Positions 3,328-55,389 of a stretch of DNA of 64,000 nt are shown here, piece by piece. This DNA is from a virus. The stretch is from positions 37,116 to 101,115 of the IMG/VR virus record IMGVR_UViG_3300042309_002320; one strand, given 5' to 3'. A program made the translations under genes and the position numbers. The number at the start of each line of letters is the position of its first letter. The stretch's first letter is position 1. Under the pieces are notes generated by a model. The model saw nothing but the letters and a program-made list of their open reading frames with translations. It did no database searches and was not told where the DNA came from.

Positions 3328-3330
3328 TTT

Positions 3331-4017: not shown

Positions 4018-4019
4018 AA

Positions 4020-36572: not shown

Positions 36573-39500
36573 CTATGAATAAAAATATGGACCCCTTGCT
36601 CTTCCAATTTCGCCGCACCAGAATGGTAAATTATTAGTATCAATTAATTCTTCACTATCGCAGGACAAATCTATCATATCTTCTGTACCATCAGGAATTA
36701 ATGGTGGAGAAGTTTCTCCGTATACGCCGTCCAATCTCGGAACAGAAGTTTTATTACCCCAAAACGTAGTATTTGCTGTTCCATCTTTTTGTCTTGGCAA
36801 AGGAGGTGGAACATTTGGTAATGGAGCAGTCGGCCCAGTCGTCTGAGTTGTTCCAGCGTCTTCATCATCCGGATCTGGTGGTATAACAGGATCCCATCCG
36901 ATATCTGTTAATCTAGACTTAACAGTACCATCTTTTACAAATATCTTATCAACAACCAACCATCCACTGATCGTCACATCTCCATATAAAGTTCTTGGTG
37001 TCAAAGAATTTGTTCCGACATCTTCGCTTGCAATTAGATACGGCTCATCTGTATTAACAGTAACGACTGGATATCCTGTAGTAACAACATTATTAAAATT
37101 TTGAAAATATGCTGCTTTATGCCATTGATGAATATCTGGTAAAAAGTATTTTCTAGTATTATTAGTCAGTATTCTATAACTATTACTACCTACTGGCAAT
37201 ATGGTATATGCTCCGTCATTCAGTATCTCAGCAGTAGATTGAGATGATGTTAGTCCTGTCGGAGCGCCATTATGAAGCCAGTTCATATATTTTAATGAAT
37301 TAATATAACTAACAAAAGTTACTGGCTTATTACCCATATTTGATTTAATAGAATATGAATTATTAATACCATTGGTGCTGAATATGATACCACCTTCTGG
37401 TTGGTTTGTCATATCAGAAATATACAGACCGCTACTAAATGGATCATTGCCGGTGGCAACAGCATTTAGAAAAATATTATATTGAGCATTTGTGACTTCA
37501 TATTTACCTATTCTATAATTTTTATTAACTTTACCCAAATTATCAATAGGTACTAACGAATATGAATTTCCATTTCTAAGATAAAGATTTCCGGTATCAG
37601 GTATATTGTCTCCATCTGTTACAATAACAAATTGAAGACCTAATATGGAACTTATAATATTATTATCTGTTTGTCCTTCGGTGCTTGCGACTCTAAATCC
37701 GATATGATCATGTCCACTATTAGCTGTTGCATATTCTATACTTTTTAGATATACTGATGGATCGTTTCCAATTGCTGAGATTGTTTCAAAAGAGCCACCA
37801 GCGGCCATCTGGCTACTAGCGGTATATTCTTTTACTGCCGGATCTATCCATTCTGCGACGTTTCCATTTTGATCATAAGTACCGTAATAACTATCTACTC
37901 CATTAGTGCCAACAGAAGAAACTATACCACTAAATAAATTATCAGTAGCATTATAGTTAAAATTAGCAGTGCTGAATGAACTGTTTATTCCACTGCCACC
38001 TGTATTTATAAGAATAGCAGCAATATCGTTAGCATTAGTAGCATAGGGTGTATAGATACCGGAAAATCTTTCTACAGAACCTATATTGGCGTAGACTTTA
38101 AGCGCTGGGCTAGGATCATTACCATAGATAGCAAAATTAATATCTTTTCTACCAGTATTAAATTCTGTGTCAACTAATGGTCTTATACTCAAAACATTAG
38201 AGCTTGAATCAGGGATTACTCCAACAACACTCTTTTGCATTGTTAAGTAACCAGCGCGAGTGATGGATACTACAGATACGGCGTTAATCGTTGTTGTTGT
38301 AACATTTTGATCTAATAATAATTCTATTATAAAACCATCGTCAAATACTATATCTGTAACTATTCTATAAACTGTCGCTGTTCCTGTTACTATTTCTACT
38401 TGATCTCCAACAGCGAATTCATCAACTGGAACATCAGCATCAAATATAATTTGTTTTAAACATATGCTGCCTGTTCTGGCATTAAACTTTGTCCAAATAA
38501 TATCTTGTTCGGTAAGAAAATAATCATTAATATCGTATAGGCCTTGAATATATCCATTAGATGATGTGGTAAGAATTTTATTAGAGCCAACATTACTAAT
38601 ATTAATACTATTTCCACTAACAGATATTCCACTTGCGGCTAATATACGACCACTTGTTGAAACACTAAGTAAGCTGCCTGTTGCTAAATTATCTAAAAAT
38701 AAATTAGTAGGATAAAGATTTGTAATAGCTAATGAGCCTTGTGAAGATATTGAGCCAGAGCCAAGTGATAATGTATTAAAACTCGCAGTAATGTTACGGT
38801 TGGCATTTGTAAATGTAAGAGATGTATTATTTTGTGTACCAATGGATAATGAGTTCAATGTTGAAGCATTAAATGATGATCCAGAGATAGTTACCGAGCC
38901 ATTACTATTTAGATTTATTCTTTGTTGATTATTATATCCTATATTAATATTGTTTAATGATCCTGATATTAAACTTTGTTGATTATTACCAGAACTAACG
39001 CTAAGAACTAATCCGCCATAACCATCTGTAGTGTTAGATGCTATACTATATAATTGAGCATAGTCTTTTTGATTATTATTAGAGTCTTTACCAGCTAAAT
39101 TAACTATTGAGCAAACATCTCCATTATTCAAACCTGATGGTTTATGATATACTGTGAGTTTTGCAGGTTGGCATGTGGTCCTATTTTCTAATCTTAGTAT
39201 CTCACTACAACTATAATTAACAACATGAAAAATAGTTTGTGGTCTTGATCCTGATGGAATATTAATTCCTACTCTACCATCATAACTAAAGAATAGATTA
39301 CGATAGTTTTGACCACTACCATAAATTATAAAATCGCTACTTTTTAGATCTTGATTAAATATTGTATTAGCATTACCAGATGTTGGGATAATTGAATGAG
39401 CTAATGATTCGGAACTTGATCCTAGCAATAGCTTATTGGTGTTTCCGGAACTCCAGTATAGTCGTGATCCTAGTAATCCATTTGAGCCATCATTATATTG

Positions 39501-40163
39501 AAAAGAATAAATATCTCCTCCTGGATTGGCTTGAGCAGAAAAATTATCCTCGTATGATAGTGCTGAAGAATATTTGTCGTTCTGGTTTAAACTATACCAA
39601 GTTTGTCCATCGCAAACCAGCCTGATTGGGTTTTGAACAGATGAGAATATTGAGCCATTATGGTCTCTAATAATAACGGAATGACCATCCGATAAGGGTT
39701 TAATATCCACAACTAAATTTCTACATGTTTTCGGATCCGGCAAAGAGCAGTCTATATTTTGAATAGTATTATCTACTATATAAATACTAGTAACAGAGTC
39801 TATACTAAAATGATTATTTTTTAGAACAACATTATGAAAATTAGTATTAAAATTAGAACTATTTACAAATAGATAAAACTCATTATTGGAACCAGAGAAT
39901 GCTTCTTTATTATTGTTTTTAGATGAATTAGATATTTCTATTCTTTTAATAACTATATTTCCATCTAATAATTGTACTTCTCCAACCCCTATTTCCCATT
40001 TATAGTTATCCTTAATGTTTCTAACAAGATAAGGAATATAGTATCCAATGCTACTATTATCTAATGTTTGATATCCATTAATAGATTTATTAGGTACAAA
40101 ATAATCATTATTAATTGAGCAATAAAAACCTATATTATTAAATATTTTAGTAGTTTTATTCAT
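36573..40163 (-). CDS. Tail fibre/receptor-binding protein with a C-terminal permuted FGE/SUMF1 domain
   Basis: WEIGVG...KRIEISNSS fibre N-terminal motif; DGRVGIN; YGTYDQNGNVAEW...GFRVAS...YRIGKYEVTN...WHKAAY. First gene after the TMP. Confidence 0.7.
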   Translation of the reverse strand: MNKTTKIFNNIGFYCSINNDYFVPNKSINGYQTLDNSSIGYYIPYLVRNIKDNYKWEIGVGEVQLLDGNIVIKRIEISNSSKNNNKEAFSGSNNEFYLFVNSSNFNTNFHNVVLKNNHFSIDSVTSIYIVDNTIQNIDCSLPDPKTCRNLVVDIKPLSDGHSVIIRDHNGSIFSSVQNPIRLVCDGQTWYSLNQNDKYSSALSYEDNFSAQANPGGDIYSFQYNDGSNGLLGSRLYWSSGNTNKLLLGSSSESLAHSIIPTSGNANTIFNQDLKSSDFIIYGSGQNYRNLFFSYDGRVGINIPSGSRPQTIFHVVNYSCSEILRLENRTTCQPAKLTVYHKPSGLNNGDVCSIVNLAGKDSNNNQKDYAQLYSIASNTTDGYGGLVLSVSSGNNQQSLISGSLNNINIGYNNQQRINLNSNGSVTISGSSFNASTLNSLSIGTQNNTSLTFTNANRNITASFNTLSLGSGSISSQGSLAITNLYPTNLFLDNLATGSLLSVSTSGRILAASGISVSGNSINISNVGSNKILTTSSNGYIQGLYDINDYFLTEQDIIWTKFNARTGSICLKQIIFDADVPVDEFAVGDQVEIVTGTATVYRIVTDIVFDDGFIIELLLDQNVTTTTINAVSVVSITRAGYLTMQKSVVGVIPDSSSNVLSIRPLVDTEFNTGRKDINFAIYGNDPSPALKVYANIGSVERFSGIYTPYATNANDIAAILINTGGSGINSSFSTANFNYNATDNLFSGIVSSVGTNGVDSYYGTYDQNGNVAEWIDPAVKEYTASSQMAAGGSFETISAIGNDPSVYLKSIEYATANSGHDHIGFRVASTEGQTDNNIISSILGLQFVIVTDGDNIPDTGNLYLRNGNSYSLVPIDNLGKVNKNYRIGKYEVTNAQYNIFLNAVATGNDPFSSGLYISDMTNQPEGGIIFSTNGINNSYSIKSNMGNKPVTFVSYINSLKYMNWLHNGAPTGLTSSQSTAEILNDGAYTILPVGSNSYRILTNNTRKYFLPDIHQWHKAAYFQNFNNVVTTGYPVVTVNTDEPYLIASEDVGTNSLTPRTLYGDVTISGWLVVDKIFVKDGTVKSRLTDIGWDPVIPPDPDDEDAGTTQTTGPTAPLPNVPPPLPRQKDGTANTTFWGNKTSVPRLDGVYGETSPPLIPDGTEDMIDLSCDSEELIDTNNLPFWCGEIGRARGPYFYS

Positions 40164-40164
40164 A

Positions 40165-43100
40165 TTATGTTAATGATCTAGGATCAATATCTATATTAAA
40201 ATTAATAGTATTATTTTCTGGATTTTTGGCTTTTAGGTCTCTAAACGCCCCCTTAATTGCTGATACCACAATTCCTGCTATATCTGGTCGTAATTGATTC
40301 AAAACCGTGTCTCCGTTGATGGTTACAACAACATCATGTTTTCCGGTAATAGTAATTTGTGGAGGAATATAAATATTACTAAGTATATTAGCAATATTAT
40401 TTAATCTATTAACAAAGTTATCAATACTAGCAATATCGCCGCTAGTATTAGATACACCACCAGCAGCATTGTTTGGTTGTTTTAGATTGGACAATGCTTT
40501 GTCGAATGCTTCTGTGATACTACTTGTTATGGATCCGACTAGACCATTAAGATATTTTGTAAAATCGAATGATTGAGCATTTCCCATCATACCACCTAAG
40601 AATTTATATTGTGGTATGTACCCACCTTTATTTAGATAGTTAACTATTCCACCTCTAGCATAATTTCCGCTATTTATTGCTTCTAATACTGGTTTATATT
40701 TTTGAGTTGATTGTCTATTAATAACAAATTCGCCAGGCGTTAACATAGCCGGAACAGTATCTGTGCCTTTTGGAGCAAAATTAACAAAGGAGCCACCGCT
40801 AGCATATAATGGAACAGGACCTCCCTTAGCAAGTTTCATAGAAATTCCTTCTGGTAATCCTGCTTGTTTTGCTTCTTCTTTAATCTCTTCTTCTTTTTCT
40901 TTGATTCTAGCTTCTAATAATGTAATCAGTCTCGACGATGTTGGCAAAGCGCCATAAATATTACCAGTTAATAATAAGTGTGCTTCTGTTGCTTTTTTCT
41001 GTAGATTATCTATATCTGTGGCTCGTACCGCATCGGTTCTTAAAGATTTTATATTATTTTCAATTTTATCTACAGATAATCCTTTATATAATAGAGAATC
41101 TTGAACATTATACCACTCTCTTAGTTGATTCAAAGCGTCTATGAAGCTAGTATCATATAATTTTCTTCCTTTTTTATCGGTAGCTTTTGTATAATATTCT
41201 TTTAGTATATCAATTATATTTAATCTAGTCTTGGGTCCAGAAAATAGATTTTCAGGCGTTAATGCCATTTTATGAACATCTTGCCATGTTGTGGCTCCAG
41301 CATATTCTGGTTGTTTTCCTTTTGGATTTGTTCCGCTCTTTAGGCCAGTCTTAGGATCAACATCGTGTAGTATCGCGCCTTCTGCTAGATCAGTAATTTG
41401 ATCAGATACTCCAATATCCACATCTCCTCCAGCAAAAGCTTTAGATCGTATTAAGGCAATTTCTCTATTTATAGCAGTAAGTACTGTTTCTTGGGTTATT
41501 GGTGGCGTTTTACGAAAATATAATGTTTTATCAAGACCTCCTTGATTAACTGTTACTGGATCCCCATATAATTTTCTATCTACTGGGATACCTAAGTTTT
41601 TCAAATATTCAGCACTTTGTGCAGGATTAGCTGGCTTATATAAGTCTACATATAATGATCTCCATGCATCTATAATAGCTCTTCTAGGAGATGTTACGTC
41701 GTTAATGTTGGTAGCTTCTTGTGCTAATTTTCCGGCTATCATACCAACTTGACTAATTTTATCTGGTGGGGTAGCTGATATTTTTATTCCTGTTCCATCA
41801 GCTAAATTTTGTGATAATACTGGTTGAATAGCACGGGCTATTGATAATCTGATTGGTTCACTAAACTTAGCTTCATCGCTAGTTACTTTTTCTCTTTGTA
41901 CTGTTGCTGCTTTAGTTTTAGCGATTAATGTCCTAGCATTCTTTATATCTTCTTCTCGCTTCTTTTTGTAATTTTCTGCAAAAAAGTTTTCGACAGGAAT
42001 TATATTCTTTCTACCATTAGTAGATGTTATTACGCTAGCTTTTTCTGAATCCTGTAAGCTCATTTTATATGTATCTGGTATATCAGTAAATAAACTAGAA
42101 TCAATCAAACCTATATTTTCACCATTAAGATTATATTTAAATGGTTCTCCTGGAGGAGCAGTCTCTTGACCTGTTAATACGTCATATATTGGAGTATTAT
42201 TCTTTAAATTTCCTAATAAAACATCTATAGAATCAGCATATAAAGATTTATTATTAGTTGATAATAATTCTGCTAATGGAAATTTAGATTTTGGATCTTG
42301 TGGTTTAACTATAATATAATTTAAAGGATCTCCAACAAAAGCCTTACTAATCGTATCATATAGTTTGCCATTGATTTGATCATATGTGAAATTAAATGGA
42401 GCAGTATCATATACTGATGGGGTTGTGGTAATCAATTTAACAAGTCCATCTTTACCTCCAATACCAAAAGCTGTCTGAGAACCACTAAAAATTTCTTCTC
42501 TAGCCCCTTGTATAGTATTGAATGCATTAGAAATCCATGGTAATTTTCTTGGATTTTTAGCGGCACCTGTGATCCTATCTTTCTGACTAATTTCTATAAA
42601 ATCATTTTCAGATAGAGCAAATTTATTAGCATCATCAATATTCTTATATGCACCATTTTTTATAATATCATTTTGTTGTAAAATATTTTTCCATTGATCT
42701 TTTGGTATATTATATAATGTTATTGGAAATTCTATTCCTCCTTTATCGAATGGTTGACCGAGATTAAAACTAGCCCTAAAAGTATTTCTATTATATAAAG
42801 CTTCTAAATCAGCTAAATATTTTTTAATATTTAATGATGATTGTGACTCAACAAAATCTTTTTCTTTTTTCATATTATCTATAGCATTTTCGATAGCATT
42901 ATAAATTGTATCATTCTTAACAATATCCGTATTTAAATATGATAACTGAGACTCTACGTCATTGTATGGAATATGCCAATCAGATGCTGTTTGGGCATAT
43001 TGCTTTAATCCTCCAGCTCCGCCACCACGAAAACTACCTATGCTTCTAAAATTATCTATACCGGCTACAACTTGTGTCATACCACTTAATGCAGATTGTC

Positions 43101-46100
43101 TAAAACTAAGTATATTTCCTAAACCAGATCCTCCAGCGGCTCCTAAAATAGAAGGATCTTTTGTTAATAATCCTGGATTTGTAGTATCTTCATATGATAA
43201 TCCCTCTAATATATAATCATTCCCTACTGATCTTACTTTAACAGAAGACTGAAAATTAGGAGCTTTCGATTTTTGAATGTTATTTAGTATTTCTTTTATA
43301 TTCTTAAATTTATATTTATCATTATAGGTTTGTAAAATATTTTGATAATTCTTTTTAACAGTATCAAAATCGAGCTGTCTTATAGGCAATAAAGAAATTT
43401 TATCTCCATCTAAAACAGTATTACTTAAGTATGATGAATCTGGAAGTCTACCTACACTTTTAACTGAAATACCGGCATTTTGAGTGGTAGATGGAATAAT
43501 TTTAGGAAAAGAAAGATTCGAACCAAATACAGCGTCTGTGACACCAATATCTGCCATTTGTATACTTACACCATCATATCCGATGCCTCTTCTGGCGTTT
43601 AAAGTACCAAGCTCAAGACCTGGTTTATTGTTACTACCTCCTCGAACTCCGGCAAATTCTCCCAATGGTCCAGATTTTTCTGAAATTGCATAATATGAAT
43701 TGGGAAATTCATAGATTGGGTTGCTAGTTATTGCTGATCCAATACCAGTATTAGGTTTAACATAATCTGAAATATTCTTATCTAATGCTGGATATGTTCC
43801 ACTTGTTATTAAGTCTTGTTGATTTCTTGATGCATAATCAGCTCCTAGAAAATCCATACCTCTAGCTTTCCATTTTTTATCAACAACAAGTCCACCATCA
43901 GCATAGTAACTTACCCTACCTCCTTTATTATAATTTCCACTATTAATAGTTTTTAGTAAAGATAAATTATTTTTTGTAGCGCTCTTATTAACAACAAACT
44001 CTCCAGGAGTTAACATAGCAGGAACAGTATCTGTTCCTTTGGATTGAAAATTAATTTGTTGGCCTTCGCTGGCATAAACCACGCCGCCAAGTCTCATACC
44101 GGGTGCTGGTTTACCATTATTTGCAAGTTCTACTAATTTCCATATACCATTTCGCATTTCATCTAATACTTGGTTTTCAAAATTAAGCTTAACACCTTGG
44201 ATAGAATGGGCTAATTTTTCTGCTGCTATTTCAGCAGTATTTTGTGCCATAAGTTGTTGAATTTGTCCAAGCATCATATTAGCTTGAGATTGTTGAGCAA
44301 GACTACTTTTATAGTAGGCTATTGCTTCCTGCATTTCTGGATCTTCTTCTGGGTTTCTTAAACTATCTAATACTTGAGCAAATAACGGATTTACGCCTTG
44401 TCCGCTTTCTTTTAACATGCTTTCTAGTACATTTGCTCTTAATTCATTTTGTTTTTGTCCTTCTCCTAGTAATGGAGCTATCATATTAAATGTTTGAAGA
44501 TCTTCGCCTCTTTGTTCTGATGTGCTTAAATTAGTTCTACCAGCCATATTATTACTTAATCGAGCTATAGAATTATTTAATTTAGCAACTTCTCCTGGAT
44601 CGGAGGTAACAACTTTTTCAAGCAAGTTCATGCCAGCTTGTCTTTTAGCTTGAACTTCTTGAATTTTATTCATAGCGGCCTCGGCCATTTCTGTGCTATC
44701 CGCCATCTGTTTTAATGCTTCATAATTTTCTCTTAGACTAACATTAACGTTACGCAATCTATTTTGCATTAACATAAACTCATCACGACCAGCTGGTCCT
44801 CTATTAGCAGCAGTATCGCTCATTCCTTGTATTTGTGATCTAGTATTTTCTAGATTAAGAATATTTTGACCAATAGCAGCAGGATTTGTTGGTCCTCCTG
44901 TTAATGAGCGTGTTTGTTCATTAGCTATTTGTTGTTGTTGAAATAATGAAGTTGATTTCCCAAAAGCTTCATTAAGTTTTAGTAATCCTTGCGTTTGAAT
45001 ATCACTGGCTCTTCTAAATCGTGAATTAGCCTCTATTTGATAATCAACCATTTGATTCATAGCATTAGAATAATCATTTAGATTTTTTTGATAAAATTCT
45101 AGTGCTTTTATGGCTGTTTCTTCTGCTCTTCTAGCAGATCCTATAGCGTCTGCAAATGCTGGTACTTGTTCAACAATCTCGTCAAAACTTACATCTTTAG
45201 CGTCTGTTCCGCTTTTACTAATTTCAGCAAAAGCTTTATTGACTTGATTACTAAGTTTATCAGTAAGATTGCTTGGTAAACCTAAGTCTCTTAAATTTTT
45301 ATCTAATGATGAGCGAATACCAGCAGCTATTCTTTCATTAGTAGCTTCTGGATTCTTTTCTATTTCTCTATTTACAGTAGATAGTACTGTCTTTTCTAGT
45401 TTGTTACCTAAGCCAAGAAGAGGGCTAACAATATCAGATTGCGATCCAAAAAATCCAGCAGCTTGACTCACTGCTTCTTTTCCTTCTCTTGGACTATAAG
45501 CGTCTAGGTTTCTTAACACATTTAAACTTTTAATAGCTATCTCACCAGATTTTGCATTACCGCTTAATGCTGCTGCTGATAATTCTGCTGATCTGCCCAT
45601 ATTATCTAGTTCAAAAGATGTTTTTTCAATCGACTGATCCATATTATTAAACATACGTTCTAAACTAACAATAAATTTTTTCATCTCTCTATTAAGTTTA
45701 TCAATTTCCATGGATCGTAAAGAAGCTTCTAAGTTGATACGAGCCCTATACTCTGCCTCTTGAGCTATAACATTACGTTCCATAGCGGCTTTTTGCTGAT
45801 CGCTGAGATTATTACTTGCTCGTATTCTTAATATTTGTTCTTGAATAACTGGATTACTTTGAGCTATATTTTTAGCAAGCTGTGTGGGAGCACCGGTTGC
45901 ATCTTTTAATTCTCCCATAACGTCTTGCATACTAGTTCCTGTTCTTAATTTCTCTTCAAACAGTCTGAGGGTAGCATCAGCAACTGGTTTGTAAGCAGCA
46001 GATTGCTCTTTGGCCATATCGGGAGCCATTTTTTGCATATAGAAGTTTCTAGTTTTTTCTCCGCCACCAAAGGTATCAGTAGATGCTATATATGCTCCAA

Positions 46101-49100
46101 TTCCTTGTTTTTCTAATATCATACTCCTTTGAGCAGCCTCGCTTCCTCCTCCCAAAGCATCAAAAAGATTAACCCACATAGCTTTAGGAACTTCAGCATC
46201 TATACGTATACCTTCGGCAACATTCGTGCCGGCAATGCTTAATTCTTGTCGAATATTATCTAATAAATCTAATCTTGTTATGTCTTTACTAAAATCTTCG
46301 AATGCATTACTTACTTTTTCCATAGCGTTTTCAACATTTTTTGCTGCTAATGCTTTATCAAATTCTCTAGCCGCATTATGAGCGTCTTTTAATGCTGCTG
46401 CTATTCCAATAGCTGCCACTCCTATAACTGCTCCAGCAGCAACAAAAGGATTACTCATAAATTTTATTATTTGTGGACCAATACTACTTGCTAAATTACC
46501 AACACTTCCACCCATAGAGCTTAGACTTTTTATAGTAGAGTCAACAGTGCCAGGTAATTGAGAGAGCGCAGCAAGACCAGTACCAAAAGTTGAACCGAAG
46601 CTCTCTATGCCAGCGGCGGCAACAACAGACCCTCTATCATTTTCTCCACCAAACATTTTTATAGCACTAGATAGAGCGGAAGTAAATGCTGTCACTCCTA
46701 CTGCCCCCTTGGTCATATAAGAAGACATTTTATTTAGAGATTTTATATTATCGTCGTAGCCTTTACTAGCTTCTATAAGACCTGCACTAGCTAATGATTC
46801 CGCAGCTGCTGTTGTTATTCCAAGTTGTTCAGCTAATTTTTCTGATGCTATTTTTTGAGCTTCTGCACTAGTCATTGTACCATGGAATACTTGTTGTAGT
46901 TTTGTAGAACTACTAATGATATCATTTAAATTTAAGCCTTTACTAAATCCACTAGTAATTTCTGTAGCAATACTAGCTAATTCTTTTGATGCTAACGCTG
47001 GATTTATTTCTTTTATTTGTGCAATTAGTGAGTCCTGTATAGATTGTACTTCTGTATTTGCTTTATCTTTAACGTCTGTGCCTTTCTTTTTAGATGAATC
47101 ACTTAATTCTTTTAGTTTAGTCTGTTTTTCTGTTTTAGACAAAGAAGCATCGTTCAATATTTTGGCTTTTTGTGATTGGTATTCTGATTTAATAGCGTCT
47201 AGATCTGCTTTTTTTCTTTGATTAATAGTTTCTAATCTGGTTTTATTTTCTAATGCTAAAATTCTAAGAGTATTTTGTTTTTCTGCCGGATTCATAAGTT
47301 CTTTAGCACTATCAATTAGAGCTTTTCTCATTTGAGCTACTTCTTGATCAAAACTAATACCTTTTGCTTTTGCTCTTGAGGCAACTAGATCTGTATCGTC
47401 TTGTGTTCCACTAAAAGAACCCGCCGAAACTGGCCTTGGAGGAACCGGTGGCGGAGCTGGCCTTGGAGGAACCGGTGGCGGAATTGGTCTTGTTGGAACA
47501 GGCGGTGAAACCGCCGAAACTGGCCTTGGAGGAACCGGTGGCGGAATTGGTCTTGTTGGAACAGGTGGTGGAGCCGCCGAAACTGAACTTGGTGGAACCG
47601 ATGGTGGAACAAACTGAGTTGGAGCCGCTGATGAAGAGCCGGGCGCAGATTGCGCTCTACTACTGCTTAATGATTTTTCTGACTCAATAGCTTGAACAGC
47701 GCCAGTTTTACGAATCTCTATTAGTTGAGCTTCTAGTTTTCTAATTTGTTCTAGTTCAGATGCTGCTACAGCTAATTTTTCTTCATAACGTTTGGCCAAC
47801 TCTTCTGGACTACCACTACTTCGCCCAGTTAGTCTAGCATCTATGGCTCCTCCTTTTGTCTTATAATCTCCTCCGTATGCTGCTATTTCTTCTCTTTCTA
47901 TTCTACCAATCTCCTCTGGTGATGCTTTGCTGATTAATTCTTTAGCGACGCTACCAACCGGACCTTCTGTAGAATATCTTTTTAATAATTCTTCAGAACT
48001 TTGTGCGGGATTAGCCGCATAGTAAACTTTTCGTTGACGTTCATATAATTGTCTTCCGCCACCAACATCTTTTGGACCTTCTCCTCCCAAACCTCCCTGA
48101 AAACCTAATTTAGTAGCCGCTGTTCTATATATACCAACTAATTCAGCTTCTATTTTTTCAATAGCTTTTTGTGCTTCTTTACTTAATTCTCCACCATCTT
48201 TAAATTTTCTAATTCCAATACCTCCTCCTTTATTTAGTCCCAGAGCCTTCGTTGCTTTTTCTCTTATTATAAAACTTCCTACTGGTAGATTTGTTGGTAT
48301 GCTATCACTAGTACCACTTCCCGGACCATTAAATATGCTAATTCCACCATCACTAAATCGCCCCATACCATTTTTATCAGCTTGATTCATACGGCTTAGT
48401 GTTCCATAACCAATTCGTTTAGCAAGTTTAGGAGGCACATAAGCCTCGCCGTTACTTACTAAGGCCGGAACAGAACCACCATCAGCAAAACGGTCTATGG
48501 GTCCACCATCGGCTCTTTGAAAATATGATAGGGCCATGCTTCTAGAATCAACAGGTTTTTGTGCTTTATTATTATTTCTTTTTACTTGTTCTGGATCATT
48601 AAGCAAGGTGGGACTCTTGCTATAACCGCTCTGTAGTATCCAAGCCGGATCGGTTGCTGGAGGCCATGTTTCTCTTCTTCCATAAAGCTTAGGATCTATT
48701 AGTGCTTGGTTTTTAGTCCAATTTTCTGGTTCTAATGGTGTTTTTTTAACATCTCCTCTGTTTTTAAAGTAATAAGCCCAGACCTTTTGAGCATCCGCAC
48801 TTACCATACTTCTGTCAGAAGTTAGCATATCTCCTTTTTCACTAACAGCTTCCATAGCCACATCATACAATCTTGGTCCATATCCTTTAGTAGCTTTTGA
48901 TAATCCAACATACCATAGATTATCTTTATATTTCATTGCTTGTACATATCCTGATCTACTCTCATTTTTAAGATATCCAACACTAAGCATATTTCCATCT
49001 TCTGTAACGCTTATTTTTCCAAAATCTTTTTCTTTTTTATTTGTTTGTTGGCTTCTATTTCCGTATAATCCTTGCATTAATCCCGACATAGCTTCTGTAG

Positions 49101-52100
49101 AATCTGCTAATCCTCCCAGAGCAAACTTTTGTCTACTTATTCCAGCACCTCCCAATAGGTCATCCAGAGTACTATCCAAAATTCCCCTTAAATTTTCATC
49201 TAATAATGGTAATTTTTGTACTAGTGTTGTTAAAAATTCTTCTTTGCCATTATCTTCATATTTATCTATAACATCTTGACTTATTTTACCTCTTAATAAA
49301 ACATCATTAACTCTAGGATTAAGCGGCTTAAAGGCTTTGGCATTTGTGGTGGAGTTAGTTGCTGCCCAAGTTTTTCTTAATTCTGGAATATATTCTGGAT
49401 CACTATTAACATATTTTGCAAATGACTCTTTGGCTGATCCCATCATCAAGCTACTTAGTCCACTAAGTTTATAACTTCTTCCATAAGCAACATCAGCACT
49501 ATTATATCCAGTATTTCCAACCAGAGCATCAAAAGCATCGGCCACATCATCATTATTTCCACTAAATAAACTAGCAACTTTTGCCTTGTATGCTTCAAAT
49601 GATTGAGCATTTTTAGTTCTAAGACTATTAAAAAGTTGATGAGTTAATTCATGATATAAAATACTATAATCTTGACGTTGCCTTGTATTAAAAGGATTAG
49701 TCGCTATGCCAACGCTACCACGACCACTCTGTTTTGCAGATTGTAATCTAGATTCTTTTGCAGCTTTAATGGCTGCATTATTTTTATCAATAAGAGATCT
49801 TTGTTGTTTTTGTAGATCGTTTAATTCTACTCTTAGTTTTTCTGCTAGAGCTACATCATAACCAAAACTACCATCTTCATATGTTGTAACAGAAGTTTTG
49901 ATTGTTTTTAATATTTGTTTCTTTTTTTCTTCTATTAGTTTAGTATATCCAAATAAATCTTGTTTATCTTGTTCAGTATAACCATATGGTGTTAAATCTA
50001 CTCCTTGTAATCCTCTGGTTCCTGGACCAGAAGGATCCTTGTTAAATAATGCTGTAGCAGGATAATTAACACCAAAATCTAACTGAGTTGGTATAGCAGA
50101 CAAAAAGTCTGTCTGTGGTAATCCTATGACTCGTGCAAATTGTCCCATTCTTTCAAAAACTGTATTTCTACTTATTTTATCCTTAAACGAATTTATGAAT
50201 AGTTCTCTACTAAAAGGAGATTCGTATCCTTTTTGTACAGCCTCTTCGTCTACAATCATTCTTTCATTACCAGGATACGTTGAAAAAACCTTCTCCATTT
50301 GTTCTTGTTCTAATAATTTTTCCATTTCCCGAACATAAGCATTACTTATTCTTTTAGGGAATTTGAATGTTCCAGAACCAAAGGTCGCTGTTCCTCCTTT
50401 AGCAAAGGCTTGTGGATTTTCTGTAAAGTATCTACTAAATTCTTCTCTGGCTTTTGAAAAACTATCTCCGTCCAAAGTTCTTTTTACTTCTGTTTCAATA
50501 TTCGGAGGTAATCCAAAAAGTTGAGCTCCTCTGCCTAGTCCCTGTGGAAAATCTATTGCTCTATTTCTTTGTAAAGCATCAACATTTATATTATAACCCA
50601 ATAATTGCGATAGTGCCGCTTCTAACATACCTCCTTCAATATTAGATTGTCCAAATTTTTCTTCTGCTGGTCCTTTAAGTTCTGGAACTTCACCATAACG
50701 AAAAGTACTTTTACCAGCAGCCATTGTTGCTCTAATATTTTCTTCACTATCATCGATTAATTTTTCAGCTCTTGCAACATTAGCAGCTTTAGCTTTTGCT
50801 ATATTTGTTCCTAATCCTTGACTAACTCCAGTAACATCTTGTTCTAAATATGGTAATCCAAATCTATTAAGAGTTGAGGCTATAATATCCGCTGTGCTTT
50901 GAGGACGAGCCGTTAAGATACGACTAAACATCCTAACGTATCCAGGATTTTTTTGTTCTATACTGGCCAATCTTTTAGCTAGTGAGGTTGGTCTAGCTTG
51001 GGCCAGACTCTCCATAACTTTTTTTCTATCCGAGTAGGCTGGTAAATCTTCTTTACCATTTTTATCTAGCATTTTTGTTCCAAGAGCTAGTGTTTCATCA
51101 AAATCTATTGCTAATGGTTGAATTGGTCCTCGAATATTTCTATTACCTAATCCGCCTAATGCTGCTGTATCCTGAATATCTTCGGCAAATTTTTGACGAG
51201 TAGCTCTATTAGCCTCTTGCATAGCTTCTATTTGTGGTAAAAAGCTAGATTGAAATCCTCTAACATAACCATAAATTTCTCTACCATCCTCCAACTTCCA
51301 GTCCGAAAAATCTTTGTTATAATCTAATGGAAATAATCCGGCAATTGCAACTTTTCTCATGGCTGCTTCTTTTGCTTCTCTAGCAGCATCTTGTTTTCCT
51401 GTCTTAGCTAACGCCCTATTTATAAATTTAATAGCTTGTGCTATATTTTTACCAGCTTTAATATTACCAGCATTTAGTATAGCTCCGATCTCTCTTTCTC
51501 CGGATCCTAATCCTAGTATTTTTTTAACTCCGCTAGCATTTCCAAAACTGGATAATTGTTCTAAAATTACAGTTTCAATAGATTTTTTTTCTTTAGCAGC
51601 TATGCCCTCTACTGTTCCGCCAACGACAAATTTTTGAATTTTTCCACCGAGATTTCGTTCTATAGCATAAACAACGGCTGTATTGTCTGGGGTGTATGTT
51701 TCATCAAAATTTGGTTCTAGTCCAGATCTATACTTTAATTCCGCGGCCGTAATATCTTTACCAGTTTCTTTCTTTGTAAGCCCAAATTGTTTCTTTAATC
51801 TACCAGACAACTTAGGGATATCAGGAAATTTCTGATCCGGCGCTTCGATACCATAATTTTGTCCAACATAATTCTCGAACATGTATCCTCTTATAGCTCC
51901 CTTGCCACTATCGTTAATTTTCAAATCATCAATATTTTTATATGAAATTTGTTGTTTTGATAGCTGTTCTTCTGCTCCAGGTAGTTGCTTCTTTATATAT
52001 CCTCCAGCAACATATTTATTCATCCTTACCAAATTGCCTCTTCCATACTTATTAACAGCTCTATTACTCATTACCACTTCACCAGGTTCTAACAATGCTG

Positions 52101-54111
52101 GAACTTTGTCTCCTTTTCCACTACCGGGAACACTGCCTCCTTTAGAAAAACCCAAAATACGACCACCACCACTAGCAGTAGTTGGTCCGCCGCCTCCGAA
52201 ATCTTTTCTATCTAAAGTAGCATCTAAATTAACTAAAGCAGCATAAACATTTTCTAGAGAACTACTATTACTAGATAAAGCATTAGTATTATTTAATAAC
52301 GCAGAATTATATGATGCTAAGGTGCTATTAATAGATACTAAGTTGGTATTCAATGCAGTTATAGCTGGTGTTAAGGCATTAATAGAAGACATTGAAGATA
52401 CCAAAGAATCTATTTTACCAGAAAGCTTATCTAGAGCGGCGCTATTTTGATCCAAATCTCTACTAACTTGTTCTGTTTTAGCTCCAACTAAACTACTACC
52501 CAAATTACTGCCTATAGATCTTGCTATTCCGGGTTGTTCTTCTCCCTCTTGTCCTTTTGGTACTTTCTTTAATCCTCCTATAAAACCACCAGTAAATTGA
52601 GTAGCACTTCTTATACCGGCACCAGCTCCTAAGATTGCTAAAACCGGTAAAACTCCTTTAAGAGCACCACTAATTTTAATTAATCCACTAACTAAACCAA
52701 GAGCGCCTTTTGCTAATGTTTGAAATGTATCACTCTGTCCTAAGCTACGAATTAATGTTAAAAATTCTTCTCTTACTTTTACAATTTGATTAGCCAAACT
52801 TAATTGTGCTTTAGCAGCATCTGCTGCTAAACTTCCTTGACCAGCTTGTGCTACTTTAAGTGCTTCTTGAGCAGTGGCGAACTGTTGAATCAAAGGAATA
52901 ACCTTTCCGATCTGTCGAAATCCACCAAGCTCTTCAACAATTTGACTAAATCTTATATCTCTTGGATCAATTCTGTTGAGTCCTTCACTTAATAATTGTA
53001 CAGCTTTATATGCTCCAACAAATTTACCCTCAACATCTGTTAAGCTTACTCCATATTCTCTTAGTGCTTCGATTGTTCCTTGTCTTTGAATACGAGTAAA
53101 AATAGTTCTTAATCCAGTAGCAATAGTTTCGGCACTTTCACGAGTTGTAGCACGAACACTAGTAAATACAGCAATAAATTCATTTAAAGCGTCTGTGCCT
53201 TCGCTAACTCCTTTGCTGGCATTTGCAAACACACCACCGGTACGCTGTATAGCAGCAATAATATCGCTACTTTCCACAGCAAAAGCAGCAGCCACAGCAT
53301 TAACAGACCCGAGAGCTTTTTCTAGTTCTTTAGCGCTTATACCAAACTGTCTCATTAATGCAATAGATCCTTCTACGGTTTGATTTATATCATCAAAACT
53401 AGGAGCTAAACTACTACGAGCCAGCGCCTCTAATGCTGATCGTGTCTCAGTAGCGCTCAAACCAGCTTGTGCTAAAGTACTAGAAACCTTAATTAAACTA
53501 TCAGAACTAACACCTAATCCAATAGATAATCTACTTATTTCATCCTGCAATCCTTTTAATCCTTCGGCGCTTTTACCAGTAACTTGTTGTAATCTTACCA
53601 GCTCTCTATCAAATTCGATAAAACTTTTTAAACCGCTATTAATAGCTCTGTTGAGACTAAAAAATACTCCAGTAACAGCACTAAATGCCGCAAAACGACG
53701 AACAGCAAGAGCGCTTTGACGACCAAACTCTTCCATTTCTGTACGAGCAACGCCGACGCTTTTGGCGCTTTTTGACGCTGAAACTCCTAAATTATCTGCT
53801 CCTTTTGCTGCTTTACTAAGATTATTGGATAGTTTTGTTGAGGAATTTCCAACATTAGATACACTTTGACCAAAATTTCTAATAGCATTAGAAGCTGCTG
53901 TTGCATTAGACGCTACATTTGCTAAATTAGTATTTAAATCTTGTAAAGACTTATTTAGTTTTGATGCATTATTAATAGCAGCTGGATCAATTTTTATATT
54001 AACATCACCAGTAATAGTTCCCAACTGTTTCTTAATATCAGAAACTATTTGTCTAACATTAGACGGTCCCCTCAAATTTAACTGAGCAGTTAAGTTAAAA
54101 GCTTGAGCCAT
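40165..54111 (-). CDS. Tail tape-measure protein (4648 aa) carrying multiple enzyme-like cassettes
   Basis: TP901-like TMP core (FDRELVRLQQVTG...LAQAGL...TRESAETIATGLRTIF); Ala/Gly hydrophobic helices; GTDTVPAMLTPGEFV modules; position after tube and chaperones. Confidence 0.9.
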   Translation of the reverse strand: MAQAFNLTAQLNLRGPSNVRQIVSDIKKQLGTITGDVNIKIDPAAINNASKLNKSLQDLNTNLANVASNATAASNAIRNFGQSVSNVGNSSTKLSNNLSKAAKGADNLGVSASKSAKSVGVARTEMEEFGRQSALAVRRFAAFSAVTGVFFSLNRAINSGLKSFIEFDRELVRLQQVTGKSAEGLKGLQDEISRLSIGLGVSSDSLIKVSSTLAQAGLSATETRSALEALARSSLAPSFDDINQTVEGSIALMRQFGISAKELEKALGSVNAVAAAFAVESSDIIAAIQRTGGVFANASKGVSEGTDALNEFIAVFTSVRATTRESAETIATGLRTIFTRIQRQGTIEALREYGVSLTDVEGKFVGAYKAVQLLSEGLNRIDPRDIRFSQIVEELGGFRQIGKVIPLIQQFATAQEALKVAQAGQGSLAADAAKAQLSLANQIVKVREEFLTLIRSLGQSDTFQTLAKGALGLVSGLIKISGALKGVLPVLAILGAGAGIRSATQFTGGFIGGLKKVPKGQEGEEQPGIARSIGSNLGSSLVGAKTEQVSRDLDQNSAALDKLSGKIDSLVSSMSSINALTPAITALNTNLVSINSTLASYNSALLNNTNALSSNSSSLENVYAALVNLDATLDRKDFGGGGPTTASGGGRILGFSKGGSVPGSGKGDKVPALLEPGEVVMSNRAVNKYGRGNLVRMNKYVAGGYIKKQLPGAEEQLSKQQISYKNIDDLKINDSGKGAIRGYMFENYVGQNYGIEAPDQKFPDIPKLSGRLKKQFGLTKKETGKDITAAELKYRSGLEPNFDETYTPDNTAVVYAIERNLGGKIQKFVVGGTVEGIAAKEKKSIETVILEQLSSFGNASGVKKILGLGSGEREIGAILNAGNIKAGKNIAQAIKFINRALAKTGKQDAAREAKEAAMRKVAIAGLFPLDYNKDFSDWKLEDGREIYGYVRGFQSSFLPQIEAMQEANRATRQKFAEDIQDTAALGGLGNRNIRGPIQPLAIDFDETLALGTKMLDKNGKEDLPAYSDRKKVMESLAQARPTSLAKRLASIEQKNPGYVRMFSRILTARPQSTADIIASTLNRFGLPYLEQDVTGVSQGLGTNIAKAKAANVARAEKLIDDSEENIRATMAAGKSTFRYGEVPELKGPAEEKFGQSNIEGGMLEAALSQLLGYNINVDALQRNRAIDFPQGLGRGAQLFGLPPNIETEVKRTLDGDSFSKAREEFSRYFTENPQAFAKGGTATFGSGTFKFPKRISNAYVREMEKLLEQEQMEKVFSTYPGNERMIVDEEAVQKGYESPFSRELFINSFKDKISRNTVFERMGQFARVIGLPQTDFLSAIPTQLDFGVNYPATALFNKDPSGPGTRGLQGVDLTPYGYTEQDKQDLFGYTKLIEEKKKQILKTIKTSVTTYEDGSFGYDVALAEKLRVELNDLQKQQRSLIDKNNAAIKAAKESRLQSAKQSGRGSVGIATNPFNTRQRQDYSILYHELTHQLFNSLRTKNAQSFEAYKAKVASLFSGNNDDVADAFDALVGNTGYNSADVAYGRSYKLSGLSSLMMGSAKESFAKYVNSDPEYIPELRKTWAATNSTTNAKAFKPLNPRVNDVLLRGKISQDVIDKYEDNGKEEFLTTLVQKLPLLDENLRGILDSTLDDLLGGAGISRQKFALGGLADSTEAMSGLMQGLYGNRSQQTNKKEKDFGKISVTEDGNMLSVGYLKNESRSGYVQAMKYKDNLWYVGLSKATKGYGPRLYDVAMEAVSEKGDMLTSDRSMVSADAQKVWAYYFKNRGDVKKTPLEPENWTKNQALIDPKLYGRRETWPPATDPAWILQSGYSKSPTLLNDPEQVKRNNNKAQKPVDSRSMALSYFQRADGGPIDRFADGGSVPALVSNGEAYVPPKLAKRIGYGTLSRMNQADKNGMGRFSDGGISIFNGPGSGTSDSIPTNLPVGSFIIREKATKALGLNKGGGIGIRKFKDGGELSKEAQKAIEKIEAELVGIYRTAATKLGFQGGLGGEGPKDVGGGRQLYERQRKVYYAANPAQSSEELLKRYSTEGPVGSVAKELISKASPEEIGRIEREEIAAYGGDYKTKGGAIDARLTGRSSGSPEELAKRYEEKLAVAASELEQIRKLEAQLIEIRKTGAVQAIESEKSLSSSRAQSAPGSSSAAPTQFVPPSVPPSSVSAAPPPVPTRPIPPPVPPRPVSAVSPPVPTRPIPPPVPPRPAPPPVPPRPVSAGSFSGTQDDTDLVASRAKAKGISFDQEVAQMRKALIDSAKELMNPAEKQNTLRILALENKTRLETINQRKKADLDAIKSEYQSQKAKILNDASLSKTEKQTKLKELSDSSKKKGTDVKDKANTEVQSIQDSLIAQIKEINPALASKELASIATEITSGFSKGLNLNDIISSSTKLQQVFHGTMTSAEAQKIASEKLAEQLGITTAAAESLASAGLIEASKGYDDNIKSLNKMSSYMTKGAVGVTAFTSALSSAIKMFGGENDRGSVVAAAGIESFGSTFGTGLAALSQLPGTVDSTIKSLSSMGGSVGNLASSIGPQIIKFMSNPFVAAGAVIGVAAIGIAAALKDAHNAAREFDKALAAKNVENAMEKVSNAFEDFSKDITRLDLLDNIRQELSIAGTNVAEGIRIDAEVPKAMWVNLFDALGGGSEAAQRSMILEKQGIGAYIASTDTFGGGEKTRNFYMQKMAPDMAKEQSAAYKPVADATLRLFEEKLRTGTSMQDVMGELKDATGAPTQLAKNIAQSNPVIQEQILRIRASNNLSDQQKAAMERNVIAQEAEYRARINLEASLRSMEIDKLNREMKKFIVSLERMFNNMDQSIEKTSFELDNMGRSAELSAAALSGNAKSGEIAIKSLNVLRNLDAYSPREGKEAVSQAAGFFGSQSDIVSPLLGLGNKLEKTVLSTVNREIEKNPEATNERIAAGIRSSLDKNLRDLGLPSNLTDKLSNQVNKAFAEISKSGTDAKDVSFDEIVEQVPAFADAIGSARRAEETAIKALEFYQKNLNDYSNAMNQMVDYQIEANSRFRRASDIQTQGLLKLNEAFGKSTSLFQQQQIANEQTRSLTGGPTNPAAIGQNILNLENTRSQIQGMSDTAANRGPAGRDEFMLMQNRLRNVNVSLRENYEALKQMADSTEMAEAAMNKIQEVQAKRQAGMNLLEKVVTSDPGEVAKLNNSIARLSNNMAGRTNLSTSEQRGEDLQTFNMIAPLLGEGQKQNELRANVLESMLKESGQGVNPLFAQVLDSLRNPEEDPEMQEAIAYYKSSLAQQSQANMMLGQIQQLMAQNTAEIAAEKLAHSIQGVKLNFENQVLDEMRNGIWKLVELANNGKPAPGMRLGGVVYASEGQQINFQSKGTDTVPAMLTPGEFVVNKSATKNNLSLLKTINSGNYNKGGRVSYYADGGLVVDKKWKARGMDFLGADYASRNQQDLITSGTYPALDKNISDYVKPNTGIGSAITSNPIYEFPNSYYAISEKSGPLGEFAGVRGGSNNKPGLELGTLNARRGIGYDGVSIQMADIGVTDAVFGSNLSFPKIIPSTTQNAGISVKSVGRLPDSSYLSNTVLDGDKISLLPIRQLDFDTVKKNYQNILQTYNDKYKFKNIKEILNNIQKSKAPNFQSSVKVRSVGNDYILEGLSYEDTTNPGLLTKDPSILGAAGGSGLGNILSFRQSALSGMTQVVAGIDNFRSIGSFRGGGAGGLKQYAQTASDWHIPYNDVESQLSYLNTDIVKNDTIYNAIENAIDNMKKEKDFVESQSSLNIKKYLADLEALYNRNTFRASFNLGQPFDKGGIEFPITLYNIPKDQWKNILQQNDIIKNGAYKNIDDANKFALSENDFIEISQKDRITGAAKNPRKLPWISNAFNTIQGAREEIFSGSQTAFGIGGKDGLVKLITTTPSVYDTAPFNFTYDQINGKLYDTISKAFVGDPLNYIIVKPQDPKSKFPLAELLSTNNKSLYADSIDVLLGNLKNNTPIYDVLTGQETAPPGEPFKYNLNGENIGLIDSSLFTDIPDTYKMSLQDSEKASVITSTNGRKNIIPVENFFAENYKKKREEDIKNARTLIAKTKAATVQREKVTSDEAKFSEPIRLSIARAIQPVLSQNLADGTGIKISATPPDKISQVGMIAGKLAQEATNINDVTSPRRAIIDAWRSLYVDLYKPANPAQSAEYLKNLGIPVDRKLYGDPVTVNQGGLDKTLYFRKTPPITQETVLTAINREIALIRSKAFAGGDVDIGVSDQITDLAEGAILHDVDPKTGLKSGTNPKGKQPEYAGATTWQDVHKMALTPENLFSGPKTRLNIIDILKEYYTKATDKKGRKLYDTSFIDALNQLREWYNVQDSLLYKGLSVDKIENNIKSLRTDAVRATDIDNLQKKATEAHLLLTGNIYGALPTSSRLITLLEARIKEKEEEIKEEAKQAGLPEGISMKLAKGGPVPLYASGGSFVNFAPKGTDTVPAMLTPGEFVINRQSTQKYKPVLEAINSGNYARGGIVNYLNKGGYIPQYKFLGGMMGNAQSFDFTKYLNGLVGSITSSITEAFDKALSNLKQPNNAAGGVSNTSGDIASIDNFVNRLNNIANILSNIYIPPQITITGKHDVVVTINGDTVLNQLRPDIAGIVVSAIKGAFRDLKAKNPENNTINFNIDIDPRSLT
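47421..47610. repeat. Imperfect Pro-rich direct repeats (PPPVPPRP)
   Basis: TGGCCTTGGAGGAACCGGTGGCGGA at 47431, 47458 and 47521. Confidence 0.9.
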
Positions 54112-54202: not shown

Positions 54203-55111
54203 CTAAGTTGTTGACACTGTTTGTTCAGTTGAGGCGGAAAGTTGGGGTTGTTCTTGTTCAACAGCCTCTTCTGCTTTAACTGATGGTTCAACTTTGTCAT
54301 TTTTGGGTTGTTCCTCATCTAATACTATTGGATTTCCATTTTCATCTAGGAAGGGTTGACTATCAACAAGGTATTCTCCATCTTTGTCTACTTTATTACC
54401 AAATTTATCAACAAAGTTACCTTCTTCGTCAATAAATCGGCCACTCTCGTCTATTAGCCTGCCTTCTCTATCTATTAATCTGCCCTTTTTATCTACTAAT
54501 CTTAGTTTATCATCAATAAATTTAAATTTCTTTAAAAATTTATTTTCTGGTAAATTACTTTCATAATCATTATCTAATCCATACAGCATATTAGCCAAAT
54601 TTTGAGCACCCATAATAGCAACCTTTTCGGTTGAACTATTTAGGTACTCTTCCATATTTTTATATACTGGTTGTTTAGTATCATTATACACCAAACAAAC
54701 ACTTACTAAATAATTAAATCTACTATTGTCAGCTTGGCCTTCGGCGCTATGATTATCCAAACTTGTTCGTACACTAATAAGATCTCTTATTTCATCACGA
54801 ATACTTTTCATCTTAATAGCTAAATCCTTAGCCTCGTTCAAACTAAAACCGCCTTTTGCTAATCTTTTTTCTCCTTCTAATAATTCTCTTTGAAGTTCTG
54901 TAAACTTAGCTTGCTTTTCGTCATTCCATAAGCCCTGATCCTCTAGTAAATCATCAAGCTTGGCTCGTACCACACTTTTGCTTTTAATAGCATCGGTAAA
55001 AGCTTGGTTATAAACCTTTTGTGCTTCTCTTTGATTATCTAGTGTGGGGCTACGAACCAAATATTCTTTTTCGACACCGTCAACTTCTACTTTAAAGGTT
55101 TTGGTCTTCAT
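54203..55111 (-). CDS. Tail assembly chaperone-like protein with C-terminal 7-aa DxxG repeats
   Basis: Immediately upstream of the TMP; helical; contains LVDKKGRLIDREGRLIDESGRFIDEEGNFVDKFGNKVDKDG. Confidence 0.55.
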   Translation of the reverse strand: MKTKTFKVEVDGVEKEYLVRSPTLDNQREAQKVYNQAFTDAIKSKSVVRAKLDDLLEDQGLWNDEKQAKFTELQRELLEGEKRLAKGGFSLNEAKDLAIKMKSIRDEIRDLISVRTSLDNHSAEGQADNSRFNYLVSVCLVYNDTKQPVYKNMEEYLNSSTEKVAIMGAQNLANMLYGLDNDYESNLPENKFLKKFKFIDDKLRLVDKKGRLIDREGRLIDESGRFIDEEGNFVDKFGNKVDKDGEYLVDSQPFLDENGNPIVLDEEQPKNDKVEPSVKAEEAVEQEQPQLSASTEQTVSTT

Positions 55112-55389
55112 GCATCCTTCTCCTGTCTAAGGTTAAATTTATAGGTATATTTATTATTTACTTTATTTTGTGATAAGAATTTTTTTATATCATCTATTGC
55201 GGATCTTGCTTGTTTATTACCATTATTTAATATACTATTTCTAGTATATTCCCAAGTATCCCAAACAGGATTATTATCTGGTTCATTTTCCCAAATATGT
55301 CCGAAGCTATCTTCGAATCGTGCTAACGCACCAATCATTGTTGTTTGAAATCTTTTATATATATTATCTAGTAATTCTTGTTCGCTCAT
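55108..55389 (-). CDS. Hypothetical protein in the tail chaperone region
   Basis: 93-aa ORF with an AGGA SD, coupled to the next gene by an ATGA overlap. Confidence 0.6.
   Translation of the reverse strand: MSEQELLDNIYKRFQTTMIGALARFEDSFGHIWENEPDNNPVWDTWEYTRNSILNNGNKQARSAIDDIKKFLSQNKVNNKYTYKFNLRQEKDA

Follow-up and report, generated by a model that had tools for sequence, protein, structure and literature searches.

Tape measure proteins fill the lumen of the phage tail and precede the DNA into the cell. The tape measure protein gpH of phage lambda is cut ~14 kDa from its C-terminus in a glycine-rich region; gpH* forms a trans-envelope channel, and gpHC remains attached to gpI through its residues 818-849. 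In phage T5, pb2 is cut after R1127 and the freed metallopeptidase piece stays in the tail, while the tape measure of mycobacteriophage TM4 contains an embedded enzyme motif of 114 amino acids (aa), which aids infection and corresponds to ~20 nm of tail. The polyvalent proteins combine zincin, GNAT, ADP-ribosyltransferase (ART) and nuclease domains in one injected, heavily shuffled polypeptide, for which release by a zincin has been proposed, in a paper that never mentions tape measures (Iyer et al. 2017, PMC5512222). Here we describe a tape measure protein encoded in a window of 64,000 nt, the final 64 kb of the 101,115 bp IMG/VR virus record IMGVR_UViG_3300042309_002320 (CheckV completeness ~70%), by one uninterrupted open reading frame (ORF) of 4,648 codons on the minus strand (40165-54111, P0001), in which short ΦxxGG units delimit cassettes that are gained, lost and reordered among relatives. 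An earlier note on this DNA, made from the sequence alone, had proposed that the phage multiplied a motif of lambda gpH and uses it to load several enzymes into the tail and release them at infection; the polyvalent proteins that it invoked for comparison do combine the zincin, GNAT and nuclease domains it named.

The P0001 product is a true tape measure protein, encoded as one chain by a tailed phage that has not been cultured. PF10145 is matched over residues 190-384 with 82.3 bits (cut-off 33.2), its N-terminal ~600 aa match the PHROG tape measure families 28, 167, 1272 and 1533, and the gene lies in a tail gene block with every gene on one strand, followed downstream by proteins of 1,196, 832 and 3,139 aa with fn3, BNR, FGE-lectin and subtilase domains. 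An assembly chimera was ruled out, as the same blueprint is found on >120 independent contigs. No DNA relatives of the phage were found among 50,697 phage records.

When every GG was listed with its context, all 19 of the short motifs in the earlier note were recovered at the positions that it gave, with GG codons at 52140, 52005, 51648/51621, 50397, 49116, 48507/48480, 48348, 48228/48195, 44088, 43923/43896, 40824/40797 and 40653/40626/40596. The pattern [FY]xxGG was observed 16 times, compared to 2.1 ± 1.4 (maximum 9) in 2,000 shuffles, and [FYLM]xxGG 20 times, compared to 5.8 ± 2.3. Family-wide, there were 3,240 motifs versus 1,303 in a shuffle, and the distance between successive motifs peaked sharply at 9 residues (371 pairs). 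The basic element is a 9-residue unit, Φ-A-x-G-G-x-V-x-x, which is often doubled, and has V, I, A or L at the second position after GG in 61%. The view of the motifs as separate short elements did require correction, since 12 of the 19 fall in five copies (M1 to M5) of a larger module of ~55-70 aa, consisting of ΦxxGG, a short Gly-rich spacer, (D)xVPAxLxPGEFV, ~20 residues and ΦxxGG(-xxxx-ΦxxGG). The 9-residue unit also occurs on its own, lacking the PGEFV core, as the isolated separators FAKGG and FALGG and as the doublet RNLGG/FVVGG. Since no residues of the module other than Gly and Pro are invariant, the idea that it is a self-cleaving enzyme was rejected. Modules M4 and M5 are just 73% identical at the DNA level over 136 nt, which rules out recent DNA duplicates or recombination handles and places the conservation at the protein level, showing that selection acts on the protein and not on repeated DNA.

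These properties bear on the role of the units, for which two explanations were considered. The units and modules may never be cut, and instead serve as hinges or inter-subunit clasps, which would hold the 3-6 parallel chains in alignment with one another while globular inserts either loop out or are threaded through the tube; the regular 9-residue period, the extended conserved pattern on both sides of the GG and the restriction of invariance to Gly and Pro are consistent with this, although the modules modelled on their own gave low confidence. We regard such a structural joint as a serious possibility that falls short of being probable. Alternatively, the ΦxxGG may be protease sites, where cutting after or next to the GG, during tail assembly or after ejection, would free each cassette as an effector. 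A module lacking invariant catalytic residues could be the recognition element for such cutting, but the conserved positions continue past the GG, the 9-aa doublets resemble a structural repeat, and cuts at every motif would yield many peptides of 9-55 aa.

The module is shared with phage lambda. The C-terminal 234 residues of gpH (NC_001416) read FHFATGG...HRGEFVF...GYATGG and align with the five module copies, and a module hidden Markov model (HMM) built from the metagenomic family alone recognised gpH residues 747-793 at 27.8 bits. The FATGG and YATGG motifs near the gpH C-terminus, cited in the earlier note together with proteolytic processing of gpH, were both found and flank a module homologous to M1-M5, and the processing is indeed placed in the Gly-rich C-terminal region. 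Pfam holds no model for the GG module, with PF09718 covering gpH residues 627-701, upstream of it, and in a tblastn search M5 matched tape measures of cultured Gordonia, Burkholderia, Nodularia, Shewanella, Ralstonia and Brevundimonas phages. As lambda gpH is cut within ~30 residues of FATGG, and the T5 pb2 cleavage site, in the C-terminal part of the protein (L074:17122-17871), reads FVPR↓AEGGMMYPG...GEHGTEVV, with the cut (arrow) directly before a GG, there is some precedent for processing, and the actual cutting of both tape measures in this region argues against units that are never cut. The T5 precedent is qualified in that pb2 lacks detectable homology to the module and is cut before the GG, not after it. 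By eye, the T5 site, which lies directly before xxEGG and a GE-containing stretch, is similar to the module; pb2 was not detected as a module homologue by the module HMM. We conclude that the ΦxxGG units are most likely flexible linkers, which by analogy may also be processing sites, as the lambda and T5 tape measures are cut beside this region; cleavage at the units and an uncut joint are not mutually exclusive.

The organisation of P0001 is not its own. A word-indexed search returned 307 proteins of 2,556-8,134 aa, and the best 120 of these (3,143-7,872 aa, on contigs of up to 250 kb) nearly all contain PF10145. Modules were present in 121/121 proteins, in 2-11 copies each, and on a single blueprint: a core of ~520-650 aa with a module is followed by a variable zone of 900-2,500 aa with one or two modules, a helical block of 1,100-1,540 aa with a module, a block of 940-1,090 aa with a module, optional extra blocks that each have a module, and a C-terminal end of ~148 aa. 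An exhaustive HMMER search with the module profile against 1.84 billion representatives (clusters at 50% identity) gave 22,208 clusters at E ≤ 0.001, of which 1,066 reached E ≤ 1e-30, with the best 150 clusters being 2,100-7,900 aa long and having 4-12 modules each. P0001 is therefore one member of a very large family of uncultured tape measures, 2,000-8,000 aa in length, and the multiplication of the motif, previously attributed to this phage, is instead the blueprint of that family. A single module is present in ~20,000 ordinary tape measure clusters, where no polyprotein is needed, which supports the structural joint.

The ends of high-scoring segment pairs (HSPs) in BLAST alignments with the 120 relatives pile up at aa ~640, 700-710, 820-830, 1230-1240, 1660, 1860-70 and 1970, and further at aa 3340, 3400-10, 4420-30 and 4490-4500, so that they gather at the motifs, in agreement with the placement of the motifs at block borders. 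When the variable zones were all compared with one another, 4,869 of the 12,628 internal HSP ends were within 12 aa of a ΦxxGG, compared to 1,379 expected, a descriptive figure given that the sequences are related. Junction alignments of relatives that are 93-95% identical in their shared blocks showed that identity begins and ends exactly at the GG. One relative (P0002) has S1 replaced by an unrelated insert of 374 aa, with the alignment resuming at F-x-V-G-G↓TVEG (arrow after the GG); a second (P0003) cleanly lacks the 201 aa S4 (GNAT) cassette, with ...SVGG running straight into the next unit and M2; a third (P0015) diverges immediately past QKFA[LI]GG; and a fourth (P0005) has the HExxH cassette ahead of the HAD cassette, in swapped order. 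Cassette HMMs detected the PD-(D/E)xK-like cassette in 110, HAD in 79, GNAT in 55 and HExxH in 48 of the 121 proteins, in varying order, while S1 is rare in the family and present in few relatives. Cassette content thus differs from relative to relative although the GG delimiters are retained, the reverse of the invariance that would have told against the earlier note. The ΦAxGG unit is thereby shown to mark the exact boundary of evolutionary cassette gain, loss and reordering. This also agrees with the polyprotein explanation, in that a ΦAxGG closes every cassette at its C-terminal side and relatives part ways at precisely the residue that follows the GG, comparable to polyubiquitin and GG-cut viral polyproteins.

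The repertoire of the family extends beyond the cassettes of P0001. One relative (P0082) has an ADP-ribosyltransferase domain (PF03496, E 1.3e-7) that is flanked by the doublets YATGG/FVDGG and LNRGG/FADGG, and PF03496 is also annotated (precomputed annotation) in an NCBI-sourced tape measure of 2,507 aa. Precomputed annotations among P0018, P0067, P0068, P0088, P0102 and P0109 include EF-hand (PF13202, PF00036), and elsewhere SHD1 (PF03983) or SNase (PF00565), which represent further cassette types that are absent from the window.

The identity of the cassettes was addressed via conserved motifs and structural models, with S3 and S4+M2+M3 modelled separately. For S4, the best 50 matches in a VIA structure search of 48,161 PDB representatives were all GNAT acyltransferases (top match 5i0c with Z 8.2, rmsd 2.6 and 83/89 aligned; 1xmt with Z 7.8), which supports a predicted GNAT fold in spite of a low-confidence model, whose predicted local distance difference test score (pLDDT) was 60-74 in the core. 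A conserved K-G-Y-G-P-R-L-Y-D in S4 resembles the acyl-CoA-binding motif A (Q/RxxGxG/A), and S4 had no Pfam match. The AF2 model of S3 is globular (pLDDT 87.7, predicted template modelling score 0.83), with the HExxH on helix 243-261 and the invariant E380, D381 and E386 as candidates for the third zinc ligand; across 15 sequences, with identities as low as 42%, neither YHELTHQ nor a GKEEFLTTL stretch shows any variation. The motif suggests that S3 is a zincin, with no family assigned. Three leads only were obtained: the sole whole-domain match in VIA was anthrax LF (1yqy, Z 6.9, rmsd 9.4), in a wide search dominated by a helical hairpin; a weak M34 match was found in BFVD; and the nearest Atlas clusters (scores 0.81-0.89) carry LPD and ART-PolyVal families. 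PF18818 and PF07737 had no match in this genome. The termini of the S3 model are coil, which would suit a cassette that is excised from a polyprotein.

For S2, the best reading of the conserved residues is a HAD-like followed by a PD-(D/E)xK-like domain. The HAD motifs occur in order and show no variation among 16 sequences, even at 29% identity (D172-F-D174-x-T176, T236 in T-A-R-P, K277 and D289-D290), and the PD-(D/E)xK triad is conserved as E333, D356 and [ED]377-x-K379. S1 gave a weak hhalign match with the PD-(D/E)xK-like domain of S2 (probability 41%, E 2.7e-4). Among the enzyme blocks of the earlier note, the GNAT stands by fold and the zincin by a motif on a globular model, while HAD and PD-(D/E)xK are found at the motif level only. 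The globular S3 and the GNAT fold of S4 do bear out the claim that the segments between the GG motifs are not all helical ruler.

Since tape measures leave the tail before the DNA does, the cassettes would be expected to enter the host with the tape measure, in 3-6 copies per virion. The cargo would here comprise two PD-(D/E)xK-like domains, a HAD-like, an HExxH and a GNAT domain, with an ADP-ribosyltransferase or SNase in relatives, and the ΦxxGG units would be the joints that string these unrelated domains on one ruler, in a tail-borne counterpart to the head-borne polyvalent proteins. We consider this overall picture, a modular tape measure with a lambda-like module and cassettes that are delivered with it, to be probable, while several observations count against it. 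The S4 model has a low overall confidence (pLDDT 51), the S3 model gave nothing at E ≤ 0.001 against PDB and BFVD (Foldseek), and hhalign of the S2 alignment with E. coli GmhB returned a probability of 0.1%. Searches per segment of Pfam, NCBIfam, PHROGs and PDB (phmmer and profile) named no cassette, with the HAD, PD-(D/E)xK and zincin calls all drawn solely from conserved motifs, and a word-based search did not, at its sensitivity, detect the cassettes in proteins other than tape measures, which sets them apart from typical shared effector domains. Finally, folded domains of 40-50 kDa in 3-6 copies are too large for a tail lumen of ~4 nm, so they must travel unfolded or sit elsewhere; the cassettes are probably carried unfolded.

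A simpler explanation holds that the 4,648 residues do no more than set a tail of ~700 nm, with the enzyme-like blocks being incidental fillers or acting on the envelope only. There is precedent in P74-26, with a tape measure of the 5,002-aa class and a tail of ~1 µm, and in TM4, where the enzyme motif within the chain adds to the measured length by ~0.17 nm per residue. The tail-length check of the earlier note would for this reason not be decisive between the explanations. We nevertheless consider a pure ruler improbable, since residues of catalytic type are invariant down to 29-47% identity, the cassette content is combinatorial and includes cytoplasm-type activities (GNAT, ADP-ribosyltransferase, nuclease), and relatives whose cores are similar differ widely in total length, from 3,000 to 7,900 aa.

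No GG-specific protease that might release the cassettes was found. Searches of the phage's own ~70%-complete record for JAB, MPTase-PolyVal, C48, C39 and ATLF domains found nothing, and the internal zincin is present in just 48/121 relatives, and thus cannot be the universal processing enzyme. Taken with the support from cassette borders, lambda and T5, cleavage at the units is an explanation that we entertain tentatively. A wider and more doubtful proposal, which we think unlikely as it stands, is that ΦAxGG is a conserved processing signal of tape measures generally, used once by lambda (gpH*, gpHC) and iterated by this family into a tail-loaded polyprotein of ruler, membrane-channel pieces and free enzymes (nuclease, phosphatase, acetyltransferase, ADP-ribosyltransferase and peptidase) that enter before the DNA. 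If true, it would constitute a second phage effector-delivery route, via the tail lumen, and would name the cleavage determinant of lambda gpH.

The positions of the blocks are given in Table 1. Although the motifs do fall at block borders as the earlier note had it, its list of blocks omitted a helical block of 1,365 aa (aa 1975-3340), most of which (aa 2301-3341) looks like a second tape measure body, with no match in cultured phages. The linker that precedes this body (aa 1978-2300) is lineage-specific and contains 12% Pro. Within it, five imperfect repeats with a 27-nt period (47417-47635) encode a PPPVPxRP linker (aa ~2165-2235), and are unique to the closest relatives. The length of S7 is conserved across the family at 940-1,090 aa; this block is without a Pfam, NCBIfam or usable Atlas match and was not found as a separate gene. 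The C-terminal end is kept in the family at a length of ~145-155 aa.

Table 1. Blocks, modules and domains of the tape measure ORF, with positions in the 64,000 nt window
Feature	Residues (aa)	Position	Strand	Remarks
Whole ORF, giant tape measure	4,648 aa	40165-54111	-	PF10145, PHROG tape measure families
N-terminal tape measure body	1-648	52168-54111	-	Kept in 114-117/120 relatives
PF10145 core	190-384	52960-53544	-	Within N-terminal body
Hydrophobic Gly-rich stretch	470-504	52600-52704	-	Within N-terminal body
GG module M1, FSKGG...PGEVV...YVAGG	649-707	51991-52167	-	Module HMM 79.7 bits
Cassette S1, small PD-(D/E)xK-like domain	705-827	51631-51999	-	Closing doublet RNLGG/FVVGG (51616-51657)
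Cassette S2, helical lead-in + HAD-like + PD-(D/E)xK-like	832-1238	50398-51618	-	Closing FAKGG (50392-50406)
HAD-like domain of S2	~991-1140	50692-51141	-	Conserved motifs
PD-(D/E)xK-like domain of S2	1149-1238	50398-50667	-	Conserved motifs
Cassette S3, globular alpha/beta	1240-1665	49117-50394	-	YHELTHQ (49636-49656); closing FALGG (49111-49125)
Cassette S4, predicted GNAT-fold domain	1668-1868	48508-49110	-	Structural matches
Tandem GG modules M2 + M3, RADGG/FADGG...FSDGG...LNKGG/FKDGG	1862-1913 (M2), 1914-1977 (M3)	48181-48528	-	
Variable linker, Pro-rich stretch	1978-2300	47212-48180	-	Matched in 0-6/120 relatives
Second conserved helical body	2301-3341	44089-47211	-	~115/120 relatives from aa ~2550
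Transmembrane-like segment, strong	2548-2577	46381-46470	-	Within second body
GG module M4, MRLGG...TPGEFV...YNKGG/YADGG	3342-3410	43882-44088	-	83.2 bits
Block S7, ~1,000 aa, non-helical composition	3411-4429	40825-43881	-	
GG module M5, LAKGG/YASGG...TPGEFV...YARGG/LNKGG...FLGG	4430-4510	40582-40824	-	79.2 bits
C-terminal end	~140 aa	40168-40581	-	Place of the hub-binding end in lambda gpH; likeness by eye only

The genes around the tape measure are those of a tail module. Directly upstream, two ORFs of 93 and 302 aa with a 4-nt overlap (54203-55389, minus strand) occupy the usual place of the tail assembly chaperones (G/GT), and the 302 aa product gave coiled-coil-type matches only. Directly downstream, the 1,196 aa protein (36573-40163, minus strand) has an FGE-sulfatase-like domain (C-lectin fold) at aa 879-1018 and is probably a receptor-binding tail-tip protein. 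The tail-tip block also contains a 292 aa ORF (32648-33526, minus strand) with a faint match to an MPN domain (UfSP_MPN_N, E 0.048). The corresponding block of lambda encodes gpK, which belongs to the JAB/MPN proteins, but the Prok-JAB model had no match in this genome. The 3,139 aa tail protein (20793-30212, minus strand) contains a complete S8 subtilase domain (aa 157-432, E 1.6e-41), the sole clear protease of the structural block, together with beta-propeller matches, fn3 and three FGE-sulfatase/C-lectin-like stretches. A 1,917 aa product (P0245) whose sequence is that of the last 1,917 residues of the tape measure, without a difference, comes from a contig of ≤37,980 bases (13 member sequences), and is most likely a gene call cut by the contig end, rather than a sign of an internal start.

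Compared with described systems, P0001 is closest to lambda gpH in its module, as both have ΦAxGG - PAxhxxGEFV - ΦAxGG followed by an end of ~70-150 aa, with processing near the module in lambda. They differ in that gpH has one module and no enzyme domain, while P0001 has five modules, extra single and double units and ~1,200 aa of enzyme-like cassettes. The link to this unannotated module of gpH turns a 50-year-old point into a prediction, namely that gpH* and gpHC end at or beside FATGG. An enzyme within the tape measure chain is shared with T5 pb2 (metallopeptidase piece), TM4 (peptidoglycan-hydrolase motif) and SPbeta YomI (transglycosylase), which carry single activities directed at the cell wall, in contrast to the several cytoplasm-type domains that are combined between conserved delimiters in the P0001 family. 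A length of thousands of residues is shared with the giant tape measures of P74-26 and P23-45, to which no sequence relation was found, and which serve as rulers for ~1-µm tails, with no enzyme cassettes reported. Units ending in x-x-G-G that are cut at the GG are known from polyubiquitin, ASFV (African swine fever virus) pp220/pp62, adenovirus protease substrates and double-glycine leader peptides, and their likeness to P0001 is one of analogy only.

Like the polyvalent proteins, the P0001 family has several unrelated effector-type domains per polypeptide in variable combinations; the polyvalent proteins differ in being delivered from the head or by conjugation and in lacking PF10145 and the GG module, and their hallmarks MPTase-PolyVal and LPD had no Pfam match in P0001. 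A literature search found no paper describing multi-enzyme tape measures. The cassettes and the ΦAxGG grammar extend the polyvalent protein idea to the tail lumen, and could be used to find or swap tape measure cargo. Embedded tape measure enzymes and polyvalent proteins are each already known, and the novelty here lies in bringing the two together within one huge uncultured family, with a defined delimiter grammar and a link to the lambda gpH module.

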